From the NCBI GenBank assembly GCA_023920165.1, contig CP089279.1:620001-684000 (forward strand): a stretch of 64,000 nucleotides of DNA. Direction: 5' to 3'. Positions 4,103 to 7,762 of this stretch are shown here, piece by piece. The position numbers and the translations under genes were made by a program. Origin of the DNA: Curvularia clavata. Taxonomy: Eukaryota. Under the pieces are notes generated by a model that had not been told where the DNA came from, made no database searches, and saw nothing but the letters and a program-made list of their open reading frames with translations. Positions within the stretch are counted from its first letter, which is position 1. Each line of letters begins with the position of its first letter.

Positions 4103-6146
4103 TGTAGCTTCTAATTGGTATCGAAATGGGCGATTTGGCGTTGCAAGCTGAGCTGCGAAAGATTCCGACTAGTCCTGATCAGCCGATGGAATGATACTCA
4201 TTTACAAAGAGATAGGTGGAATCAACCTGTGGGTCCGGCGTGAGGCTATCTTAGTGTGATGCGCTAATCGCGTAGTCATGTGATTTAGCGCGTCATGTAC
4301 TACCTTATCTATACCCGTCCTCAAGTCAGGATTGAATTCTGCAATCTCACCAAATAAACAACTTGACTTATCATATCTCAAATTCTCAGGATATGTACAA
4401 TCTATTGCCGCCTCAGAATGTGACACTTAGGATATTACTGGTGTGCTAATCCAAACAGAACGTCATCTGCCATTTTGAAGTCAAACAATCCACATTATGC
4501 AGTCCTAAGGAACTCCGAAAAGATATCTAAACATTTTCATAATCTAATGTGCCGTATTATCACGTCTAGAACTACAACAAAAAGGTTTGCTCATCCAGAA
4601 CGTAGCCACTCTGCAACGTGTGGAGTAAGGAAAACAAATAGAAAACATGCCTGTTCTAAAGTTTAAAATCGTGTCCCTTCTATCTCGAGACCTGGACCAA
4701 AACCTTGGAGCATCGATGAATACAATACAACCCACCAGCTAACAGCACCTTGCAACGGACTGCGCCGTCTCTAAGCCTACAAACCCGTGGGAACCCCATT
4801 CTTCGTAAGATTGCTTCCGCTCAAGAATACTACCTAGCACCTTACCCAACATAGCAACACTAAACCCTCCTAACACCAATCTACACCAACACAACCCTCC
4901 ACCGCGCCATCTGCAGTCCAAATTCCCCTCCTCCGACAGCACCAAGCCCACCTCCTTCTCCACCCAGACCTACAAACCCTCCCACTAAACCCATCTTTCC
5001 AAGCCCTCCACTCACAAAAGAGTCGTACCATGCACTACCCTGTCACTATAATCCCAAACTCTTCTTAGTGAACCAAAATCATCCTAAACAGAATTTTCCA
5101 AGCCCCAGCACTACCTCCTCACTGTGCTAACACAGCGAGCGAATGCGGTAAACGCTAGCCGTGAACGCTCCTTTCACACAGCTACTGCAGCAGCGAGTGC
5201 AATAAGACGACGACAATAGCACCGTGCAGTGTTGGGAGAAGCGGAGGGCCGAGAACGCGAAGCACATTAGAGGAAGGAAAGTGGGGTCTTCAATGGAGAG
5301 ACATGGCTTAGTTGTTTTGAGCGTATTAGAGGCGATTTCAGTGATGTTATGCTGTGGAGTTGGAGTAGATATTACAGTGAGCGTGTAGTGCCATCGACAA
5401 GAATTCGCAGAGCTGTAAGGATGGCAATGTCAATAGGAGTGACGTTTTTTTTTGCGGCAGTGGGACACTGATGGGGGCGAGTGGTTGAAAGGTGTTGCTT
5501 GCGTGGGCTGCGCGCAGAGACGGGAAGTTGTGTGCTTGAAGCCGTGGAGATATAGACGTATAGTAATTTTGTTTCCATCAGTACATTGATTCACGCAAGG
5601 ATAGTCAAGTTCGTGAACGTTGTGCCAAAAAGAATTGAATTTATCTGTGTCATCATCCTCGATGCAATGTCGGCACCACTATGCAATCCTGTAGTGCTAC
5701 TCCTACTCGACCATGCCAAAGGACAGCAACACACCACCAGTATCGCGACGATACTGTATCCCAGTCTCACAAAAGGATCAGGAAAACTTACTCATCATGC
5801 GTCCCAAGCATCTAGTTCATCTTCCACTCTTCCCAGCTTGAGAAAGAGCGGTCGACTATCCAGGCGGCACCACGAGGAGGCGCAAGGGTCCGACTTCTAC
5901 CGCCCATCCTCCTCTTGCGATCAACCCAGCCCCGAAGGACCGTGATCCGTTTTCGCCGAGCGACGTAACTGGTCAGTTATCGTGAACAGTCAACTGCCTC
6001 GCCGCCCACCACAAAAAGGCCACAATGGACCAGGCAATCGACAAAACGACAAAGCCCCGATTGAACCTGCGCAGCCCCACCCAGGAGGCCCCAAATGCGT
6101 CCCGGTGTGGTACGCGAGCCTGACATTACCAGTTCGCAGCATTACA

Positions 6147-6286
6147 GCCAAGGACCATTTGGTCTGTCAGAGACTCAAGTTTCCCACTCGGAAGCAGTCA
6201 ACTGAGCTCCATATCTGTAGGCATCTTCCTCACGCGAACCTCTGAAAAGAGATACACTGGAGGTGGGGATACGCGAACGTTCCCTG
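6147..6286 (-). repeat. Structured repeat module copy 1 (140 nt)
   Basis: Plus-strand consensus GCCAWGGACC-N4-GGTCTGTCAGAG..CTC..GGCATCTTCC..CTGAAAAG..ACTG..GGGGA..TCCCTG. Confidence 0.9.
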
Positions 6287-6636
6287 CTCCGATCGTCTGA
6301 CTTCAACGGCGGACGACTCGACAGCGTGTGCCGGACCAGACCCAAACTTTTCTTTTGAAAGCAAAAGAAGGTGTACCCGATTGCTGGGCTTACCTGGAAA
6401 TCAACGCCAAAAGCACAAAGAAGCATGCGTACCTGAACAAGCGGGCGTGCCCTGACGGGCGTACCCGGAAGCGGACGTATCCCTGGGAAAGAGGCGGACC
6501 TCAACGGGCGTACCCGGAGTAATCAGCATATCCTTAGAAGACGGCGTACCCCAACGGGTTAGGAGGAGGAAGGGTCGAATCGAACAAGAGTCAACAACCT
6601 CGGGGATGGGTGTCCGAGTTTACCCGCAAGCAAAGT

Positions 6637-6756
6637 GCCATGGACCATAAGGTCTGTCAGAGACTTCCTAAGAAGCTCCACATCGCAGGCATCTTCCATG
6701 CTCATCTTCCTGAAAAGGATGATACTGATGGCGGGGATAAGGCGAGCCTTTCCCTG
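6637..6756 (-). repeat. Structured repeat module copy 2 (120 nt)
   Basis: Same conserved blocks in the same order as copy 1. Confidence 0.9.
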
Positions 6757-7063
6757 ACAAGACGGGTTCCTACGGACAACCATCAATGGAGCCGCATACA
6801 AGTTGTCATTCTTGGTACCAGTGACGAAGTGGGTGTGTACACGACCCCGAGTGCGCAAACAACTCGTGCGCCGACATGGGTTCCAGCGTTGACGGAATGT
6901 ACGTTGACCGGGTCTCCGGCGCGCCGAGCTCGTCGTAAATCATTCGTCCAAGATTCTTCGAACGTACGAACCCATATGGTTTGGTCTGGGGATTTTCCAG
7001 GTCAACGCGGTACATTGAGTATCATATTCAGCCTTGGAGGGTGAGCGTTGACAGCCAGAGAAC

Positions 7064-7263
7064 GCCATGGACCCAATGGTCTGTCTGAGCCTTTCGAAAA
7101 AGGACTCAATACCTCAGGCATCTTCCACACTCGCTGTCTGAAAAGACAGCACTGGTGGCGGGAGAAAACCCCCTTTGACTGGCAAGCTGCTGCACCTTCC
7201 AGCTTCGCACTCCTTGTGGAGTCCTGTCAATCCGGCAACGGCAATCGACGCTTCGTGTCCCTG
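7064..7263 (-). repeat. Structured repeat module copy 3 (200 nt, long insert in the last hairpin)
   Basis: Same blocks; contains the perfect hairpin GCTGTCT-GAAA-AGACAGC. Confidence 0.88.
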
Positions 7264-7309
7264 GTGGGCTCTGCCTGTACAAGGGAGAGGCATCCTCGCA
7301 CGACAATAG

Positions 7310-7422
7310 GCCAAGGACCGAAAGGCCTGTCAGAGCACGAAGCTCCACACCTGTTGGCATCTTCCACACGCGACGACCTGAAAAGGTGACACTGGTGGCG
7401 GGGCTGCGTTGAACGCTCCCTG
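7310..7422 (-). repeat. Structured repeat module copy 4 (113 nt)
   Basis: Same blocks with minimal hairpins. Confidence 0.9.
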
Positions 7423-7556
7423 TCGTGAAGTAGCCTGCTCCCTTGTCTATGGCCCGCACATCACTCGCGAGTGACGTGCGGGCAGGCCTTGGAAGGCTGA
7501 GGCTCTATCCAAAGGTGGCGCAAGGCCGACCACAGAAAAGACAAGGTGCTCAGGGA

Positions 7557-7762
7557 GATATAAGAAAAAAGCGTGGCGGGGAAAAGAAAGAAAAGTTTGC
7601 ACGAGCTGATGAGAGGGCTTGAGGGCGGAGGAAGTGGGCCAGAGGTCTTATGCTATGGGTGCAAACATGCCCCGTTTGCTGGTCACGTGACTGCTGGCCA
7701 CTGTGCCGGTGAAAGGTGAGCTGCCGATGACGATGAGTCGTCGTCGAGTGAAAGGTGAGCTG
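7557..7762 (-). promoter_or_regulatory. Putative promoter of the structured RNA
   Basis: Palindromic E-box GTCACGTGAC at 7682-7691. 15-nt direct repeat GTGAAAGGTGAGCTG at 7709 and 7748. Minus-strand pyrimidine tract at about 7557-7595. No adjacent protein-gene 5' end. Confidence 0.4.

Follow-up and report, generated by a model that had tools for sequence, protein, structure and literature searches.

A repeated structured RNA module and a predicted HDV-like ribozyme in the probable 3' tail of a fungal WD40 transcript

What kind of RNA, if any, is made from a long stretch of fungal DNA that encodes no recognizable protein? The locus considered here lies in 64 kb of filamentous ascomycete DNA (Curvularia clavata contig CP089279.1; the whole stretch analysed is called the window), immediately left of a gene for a WD40-repeat protein. 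We found no convincing open reading frame (ORF) in the 4.2 kb left of this gene. An initial annotation had read the block from 5950 to 7762 as one long structured RNA of the minus strand with its own promoter, which leaves the questions of which strand is used, where the RNA begins and how it ends. We observe four copies of a repeated module with conserved base pairing, a minus-strand polarity of that pairing, a ribozyme fold beyond the modules, sequence contigs that end at the cut predicted for the ribozyme, and contiguity of the modules with spliced WD40 coding sequence. The block is probably the 2.3-kb 3' tail of the WD40 transcript, carrying four modules and an end made by a ribozyme without poly(A). 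Coordinates of all features are collected in Table 1.

Several diverged repeat copies had been noticed in the initial annotation, and four were confirmed by alignment (mean column identity of 67%), by a strict three-anchor pattern (four matches in 64 kb, against none expected) and by a hidden Markov model (HMM) of the module core, which found exactly the same four copies and nothing else within the window. Tandem Repeats Finder reported no repeat in the block because the spacing of the modules is irregular. Each module is an autonomous folding unit of about 150-200 nt. On the minus strand, modules 2, 3 and 4 are closed by 28, 24 and 32 pairs, and the folds of module 2 (-73.8 kcal/mol, z -1.97) and module 4 (-83.1 kcal/mol, z -1.79) are the two that we scored against background; the minimum-energy fold of module 1 lacks the closing outer stem.

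The strict pattern also matched 30 stretches of public metagenome and metatranscriptome contigs, which make up 28 loci (individual contigs are cited below by L numbers). Within these loci and the window, nhmmer placed 89 modules with a single shared orientation. Three to five modules are present where a locus spans the array (five in L015), and one or two in shorter loci. The WD40 gene is convergent to the modules in 17 of the 28 loci; of the other 11, 10 do not extend far enough to show it, ending less than 600 nt past the last module. Position and orientation beside this one gene are kept in at least 14 sequence groups. Between species, the DNA is conserved in three things only: the modules, the coding sequence and about 120 nt at 5786-5922. 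A search of Rfam 15 with window positions 5000-8500 at E<=10 returned seven chance-level matches, none of them inside a module, and a search with module 2 alone returned two irrelevant ones. The four-copy module is a structured RNA class that matches no Rfam family.

We examined covariation in an alignment of 46 modules from 15 sources (14 loci and the window), taken in the minus orientation, and scored 20 core pairs in five helices, or 906 cells. Standard pairs filled 96.2% of the cells, compared with 86.0% in shuffled alignments (none of 500 shuffles reached the observed value), and controls in which the partner was slid were 25-54% paired. Changes on both sides were found in 17 of the 20 core pairs, involving 105 cells. 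Because the core pairs covary, the fold is supported. It consists of a long closing stem, with at least five pairs in 43 of the 46 modules and usually 15-30 in minus-strand folds. Three elements stand above this stem: one small hairpin, an arm with internal looping and a pyrimidine-rich loop at its tip, and a three-way junction bearing two hairpins. Joining nucleotides are near-invariant. RNAalifold run on MAFFT alignments recovered this fold only in part.

The same core pairs distinguish the strands. Standard pairs number 872 of the 906 cells when read on the minus strand and 823 on the plus strand, and G·U pairs number 55 against 6; this asymmetry supports the minus strand. A strand-neutral count on unique helices gave, for non-Watson-Crick pairs favouring plus and minus respectively, 2 against 17 in P4b, 4 against 10 in P3, 0 against 2 in P1 and 2 against 3 in P4a. 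WD40 introns in the module-bearing contigs read CT..AC, which is again the minus strand. The initial annotation had based its choice of strand on A-C mismatches of the plus strand that become G-U wobbles on the minus strand. Such positions are real in the window, as in the palindrome at 7452-7483, which has one mismatch, and in copy 4 (GGACC/GGCCU), and the effect is stronger across the 46 modules. It had also counted GAAA loops in favour of the plus strand; the loop is not kept as GNRA in all 46 modules, some of which carry other loop sequences. Its central proposal, a long structured minus-strand RNA of repeated units that is transcribed, is borne out by the covariation, by the G·U asymmetry and by RNA contigs over the whole block.

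Just outside the left edge that the initial annotation gave to the block, and overlooked there, the minus strand of 5799-5905 fits the nested double pseudoknot of a hepatitis delta virus (HDV)-like ribozyme. The Rfam model RF00094, built from hepatitis delta virus itself, aligns over its full length (1-89 of 89) to 5798-5907, and one descriptor fits all six sequences from five sequence groups. P1 is GGGCGGU/GCCGCCU with a G1·U pair in four of the six (consensus GGGCRGY/GCYGYCU); in L004 it reads GGGCAGC/GCUGCCU, a compensatory change from G-C to A-U together with one from U·G to C-G, and in L012 it has one G·U. P3 (GCC/GGU), L3 (UCCUCGU) and P1.1 (GG after GCCGCCU, matched to two C residues of L3) are invariant in all six and hence show no covariation. 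P4 spans 37-49 nt, has a distinct sequence in each of the five groups and always folds (-11.6 to -18.3 kcal/mol). A candidate P2 would pair GACCCUUGC with the conserved 3' strand GCUUGGGAC; U·U and A·A mismatches remain and two pairing registers are possible, and one-sided changes in L012 (UU to AA) and in L014 and L026 (U to A) add pairs. Conserved C residues in GAAC(C/U)A(A/G)AUGC are candidates for the catalytic C of J4/2, and the predicted ribozyme ends in GCUUGGGACGC.

In its double-pseudoknot layout, its 7-bp P1 starting from the cut, its L3 and P1.1, its variable P4 and a predicted cut at its own 5' edge, the element is like other HDV-like ribozymes. Li & Breaker (2017; PMC5640933) report 230 variant HDV ribozymes from 26 fungal species, with 'widely variable gene associations' and C-G pairing at the cut. 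In those variants P4 has an E-loop and one more nucleotide lies between P2 and P3; the paper adds that most HDV ribozyme representatives were found by secondary-structure searches that largely ignore the few conserved nucleotides. The ribozyme predicted here resembles these variants in a possible extra C between P2 and P3 and in an AGUC/GAAC internal loop at the base of P4, but differs in having G·U at the cut and one fixed gene context. Four strings of 12-18 nt taken within its core from L3, from P3 (3' strand) and from part of P1 (3' strand) are absent from three short text supplements of that article (PMC5640933), among which there are no sequence alignments.

If this ribozyme acts, RNA should end at its 5' edge. 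Ten contigs belonging to seven sequence groups (L003, L007, L008, L015, L016, L017, L018, L021, L023 and L025) begin exactly at the base preceding G1; L022 begins 3 nt and L011 5 nt inside the cut. These contig ends carry neither poly(T) nor poly(A). All ten cut-end contigs run unbroken through the modules into WD40 coding sequence. L003, L008 and, outside the ten, L022 derive from spliced RNA, because they are without the WD40 introns (CT..AC, minus strand) that are found in the genomic contig L001. Next to the cut on the upstream RNA lies a conserved terminal region, composed of a variable hairpin on a covarying stem, G(R)UCG...CGAYC, and then a conserved tail of 13-14 nt, GCAAGAGGNGGAY-3'.

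For the window's own species, assembled contigs of four runs (X1, X9, X10 and X14) were placed on the window. X1 contains three CT..AC joints and is therefore RNA; its 3466-nt contig covers 5954-9171 plus 9228-9445, with a minus-strand intron removed, and the joint 9171->9228 is present in three runs. RNA contigs X9 7686-8879 and X10 7552-7865 also cover the region between the WD40 stop codon and the modules. Near the predicted cut, contigs of X9 and X10 start at 5908 and others end at 5895 (X10) and 5894 (X14); the interval 5896-5907 is bridged in none of the four runs, which by the rule of this comparison is a weak hint only. Contig depth is no basis for ranking parts of a gene, and uncovered stretches, such as the modules in X14, are no evidence of absence. 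In every contig that reaches that far, including the spliced L003, L008, L022 and X1, the block joins the WD40 coding sequence, contrary to the earlier remark that the promoter-like region has no protein gene to serve.

Further observations concern the two ends of this RNA. Another X1 contig, lying directly downstream of the ribozyme in minus-strand terms, covers 4452-5823 (depth 51); this may be what cleavage leaves on the 3' side, or else RNA read through as far as a poly(A) site. The 38 ORFs of 4000-5800 gave no tblastn match to five loci that would point to a conserved downstream frame. All six ribozyme sequences (the window, L001, L004, L012, L014 and L026) carry GU(A/G)AGU, a consensus for 5' splice sites, 5-8 nt after GGGACGC; no spliced form using it was seen, and the X1 contig 4452-5823 has no joint. 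U1 binding at this hexamer might compete with folding of the ribozyme. At the opposite end, an X1 contig continues past 9445/9446 for 30 nt unlike the window, diverging exactly at the 5' G of the first intron. This loose end holds UUGGGACGC, a 9-mer of the ribozyme 3' strand that occurs in the window only at 5799-5807, and its first 20 nt have no match in the 64 kb with up to two mismatches. Contigs of X9 and X14 stop close by, at 9443 and 9442.

On the reading that we favour, one minus-strand transcript would consist of a short 5' untranslated region (UTR), a 1.1-kb coding sequence and about 2.3 kb of non-coding RNA running from 8241 down to 5906. The ribozyme would cleave the RNA as it is being made, at the 5' edge of the ribozyme itself, just past the terminal stem-loop and the short conserved tail, and coding RNA and modules would be released together with a defined end and no poly(A) tail. 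Cleavage would be an event of the living cell and not a product of RNA handling, and most WD40 mRNA would carry the tail. Among possible roles of the modules, we favour that of repeated binding sites for a protein, which would stabilise the tail-less RNA, export it or help in its translation, because near-invariant junctions are combined with covarying helices, in three to five copies, on an RNA without a poly(A) tail. The multivalent scaffold suggested in the initial annotation is a live reading of the modules' role. A more far-reaching version, in which the modules replace the poly(A) tail (in exosome protection, export and/or translation) and the conserved 5' splice site behind the ribozyme, by U1 binding or splicing in competition with ribozyme folding, switches the gene between a tail-less and a read-through polyadenylated form, is a speculation that we think doubtful.

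A number of results weigh against this reading or against parts of it. Six contigs cross the cut; L001, L027 and L004 (14-51 kb) are presumably DNA, and L012, L014 and L026 (1.4-1.7 kb) could be of either origin. If the latter three are RNA, an uncleaved precursor exists. X9 is an oligo-dT library yet contains the block, which is unexpected for a strictly tail-less RNA. The transcript evidence consists of assembled contigs, which do not establish that the parts belong to one molecule; an assembler would also merge a separate, overlapping minus-strand RNA. L002, with one clear module and no WD40 gene within the next 1.7 kb, is the sole exception to synteny. The ribozyme scores 14.8 bits with RF00094 (E 5.5 on 191 nt), far short of the curated cutoff, which is 50; the alignment sets an A at the model's C75, more than one C is a candidate for the catalytic one, and the sequence is almost invariant across the five groups, so that covariation is thin outside P1 and P4. 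As to strand, helix P2 gave 22 plus-favouring against 10 minus-favouring pairs, the 22 being contributed by two outer positions of which one is invariant. The folding energy of the whole module was lower on the plus strand for 17 cores and on the minus strand for 29, and with flanks for 27 and 19, neither difference being significant; whole-fold G·U/A·C counts (221 against 212) did not separate the strands. Fold z-scores of two window modules are modest (-1.8 and -2.0).

Several other explanations of the block have to be weighed against a ribozyme-ended WD40 transcript. In a version that follows the initial annotation, an independent minus-strand long non-coding RNA (lncRNA) would start from its own promoter at about 7440-8240 and end at the ribozyme; the WD40 mRNA would end earlier with poly(A) and overlap it. 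We consider this unlikely. The motifs on which it was built are all present at 7557-7762, namely a purine tract (pyrimidine on the minus strand) at 7557-7595, the E-box GTCACGTGAC at 7682 and a 15-mer at 7709 and 7748; contigs cannot separate overlapping RNAs of the same strand, and 2.3 kb is an unusually long 3' UTR for a filamentous fungus, which counts in favour of a separate RNA. The motif stretch is, however, not conserved, while modules, ribozyme and coding sequence are: blastn finds no counterpart of it in 14 of the 15 related loci, the closest relative, L015, aligns only from 7796 on, and 7557-7762 is covered in none of the 15. Moreover, the ten cut-end contigs show no contig end between the stop codon and the first module, and the X9 and X10 contigs named above span the proposed promoter. 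With the motif stretch unconserved and the block contiguous with WD40 coding sequence, a separate promoter is unsupported. Transcription in the opposite direction, as a plus-strand non-coding RNA that starts at 5906 with the conserved 110 nt upstream as its promoter, has a very slender chance of being correct. Sharp contig ends without poly(A) or poly(T) would fit a transcription start too, some modules have GAAA loops and P2 can be extended by plus-strand G·U pairs, but the balance of G·U pairs (55 to 6) favours minus, the supposed promoter folds as a minus-strand HDV-type ribozyme with a compensatory change in P1, and the same contigs carry coding sequence spliced on the minus strand.

The remaining alternatives concern what the modules do. 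Excision of the modules as separate small RNAs, from a polycistronic precursor of the small nucleolar RNA (snoRNA) or microRNA type, is improbable in our estimate. A long stem closing each module and three to five paralogous copies in a row are the layout of clustered small RNAs; against this, there are no C/D or H/ACA boxes and no match to an Rfam family, and contigs run unbroken through all modules in ten loci and in X1, a weak argument since the libraries would miss short RNAs. Riboswitch-like domains, which would sense a ligand and tune either cleavage by the ribozyme or translation, would account for the multi-helix junctions, near-invariant joining nucleotides and freely covarying helices, which are typical of ligand-binding RNA. 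Nevertheless, the modules have no similarity to any Rfam riboswitch, they lie 240-600 nt or more from the ribozyme with unconserved spacers between, and the neighbouring gene encodes a generic WD40 protein and offers no metabolic context; we give this reading very little credence. Both a riboswitch-like role and small-RNA excision are less likely than protein-binding sites. That the block is a decayed repeat or transposon relic without function at the RNA level could be argued from the repeated, diverged copies and from thermodynamic z-scores of only about -2. This reading is largely refuted by the compensatory changes in 17 of the 20 pairs, and the constant placement of the modules next to one gene, always in one orientation, in at least 14 groups and the single locus in 64 kb also speak against it, leaving it with almost no probability.

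Known systems share parts of this arrangement. MALAT1 and MEN-beta are abundant Pol II transcripts with a non-poly(A) 3' end, which RNase P makes by cutting at a tRNA-like element and which is held in a triple helix. As in these RNAs, a conserved structured element just downstream would set the end here, and a conserved structure lies near the new end; unlike them, the predicted cut is by a ribozyme and not by RNase P, the tail GCAAGAGGNGGAY is no A-rich end tract, and the RNA has coding sequence. An end of the MALAT1 type was rejected, since ARAGORN finds no tRNA-like element in 4000-8300 and there is no A-rich terminal tract. Rodent Clec2 genes have hammerhead ribozymes in their 3' UTRs. The locus is similar in having a predicted self-cleaving ribozyme in the 3' region of a protein-coding transcript, where it would remove the poly(A) signal, but the ribozyme is of another class, and the cleaved RNA, with its repeated conserved modules, appears to be the main assembled species.

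NORAD and the A-repeats of Xist are examples of repeat-unit lncRNAs. As in these, several diverged copies of a structured unit stand in one RNA here and suggest multivalent protein binding; in contrast to those RNAs, neither a Pumilio site nor another known protein motif was identified, and the units are larger, multi-helix and placed behind coding sequence. In R2 and other non-long-terminal-repeat retrotransposons, an HDV-like ribozyme heads a functional downstream RNA. The predicted ribozyme would likewise process a longer co-transcript, but what comes after it has no conserved ORF, and it is the upstream side that holds the conserved parts. Telomerase RNA was rejected because TAACCCTAA, the template expected for TTAGGG repeats, allowing one mismatch, does not occur in 5906-8241 (there are 11 matches elsewhere in the window), and a snoRNA cluster, hammerhead, twister, thiamine pyrophosphate (TPP) riboswitch or flavivirus exonuclease-resistant RNA because there is no Rfam match. 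In the literature searched, whose coverage is incomplete, neither this locus nor a WD40 transcript with a ribozyme end nor the module was found to be described.

The protein encoded by the adjoining gene matches Pfam WD40 (E 9e-32), and its last exon is the ORF 8242-9186 on the minus strand. Its relatives are annotated as 'WD domain-containing protein', from Pleosporales at 70-78% identity and from more distant ascomycetes; across Pfam, PDB sequences and NCBIfam only generic WD40 matches were obtained. Farther left, a 584-amino-acid frame at 838-2592 on the plus strand resembles a GMC-type oxidoreductase, as judged by eye. The 413-amino-acid ORF next to it, at 2781-4197 on the minus strand, matches nothing in Pfam; a 59-nt minus-strand intron within it is spliced.

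Within the module array, the interval 6444-6518 between modules 1 and 2 holds two 26-nt copies (6444-6469 and 6493-6518) that are 81% alike, and shorter GGCGTACCC-like pieces seem, on reading, to flank both sides. In run X10, a contig of a related organism at 7098-7272 (90-95% alike) leaves out 7161-7271, and its loose end looks like the beginning of a module; the arrangement of copies in the array thus seems to differ between close relatives. In the non-coding tail of L011, 49 nt are missing relative to L001:3476-3524. The ends of this gap (CT..TA or TT..AC) rule out a canonical intron, and it may be a strain-level indel.

Table 1. Positions of the features of the WD40 locus in the window
Feature	Position	Strand	Remarks
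GUAAGU, 5'-splice-site-like hexamer	5786..5791	-	7 nt past the ribozyme
HDV-like self-cleaving ribozyme, predicted	5799..5905	-	G1 is the complement of plus-strand 5905
Predicted cleavage site	5905/5906	-	upstream RNA would end at plus-strand 5906
Conserved 3'-terminal region	5906..5965	-	from alignment and folds of 10 sequences
Module 1 core	6146..6286	-	nhmmer 90.3 bits; copy closest to the RNA 3' end; in the covariation alignment
Module 2 core	6636..6755	-	nhmmer 97.2 bits; outer closing stem to about 6590-6801
Module 3 core	7064..7168	-	nhmmer 76.0 bits
Module 4 core	7310..7422	-	nhmmer 89.4 bits; outer closing stem to about 7263-7467
Proximal 3' region, WD40 stop to module 4	7423..8241	-	holds the palindrome 7452-7483, the tract, the E-box and the 15-mers
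WD40-repeat gene	8242..9486	-	stop codon 8242-8244, ATG 9486, two introns
WD40 introns	9172-9227 and about 9398-9446	-	first intron and ATG read from the sequence

Fungal HDV-like ribozymes are already known. To our knowledge, very few natural cellular mRNAs have a 3' end made by a self-cleaving ribozyme, and in yeast, artificial mRNAs that end in this way are poorly exported and unstable. At the present locus, an end that is probably ribozyme-defined is found on transcripts assembled in many independent samples and in at least seven sequence groups, together with a new structured RNA class of which about 46 examples have been aligned. The locus would offer a natural setting in which to study how fungal RNA that lacks a poly(A) tail survives and is perhaps translated, and it indicates that a 4-kb "intergenic gap" of fungal annotation can be one long 3' region.

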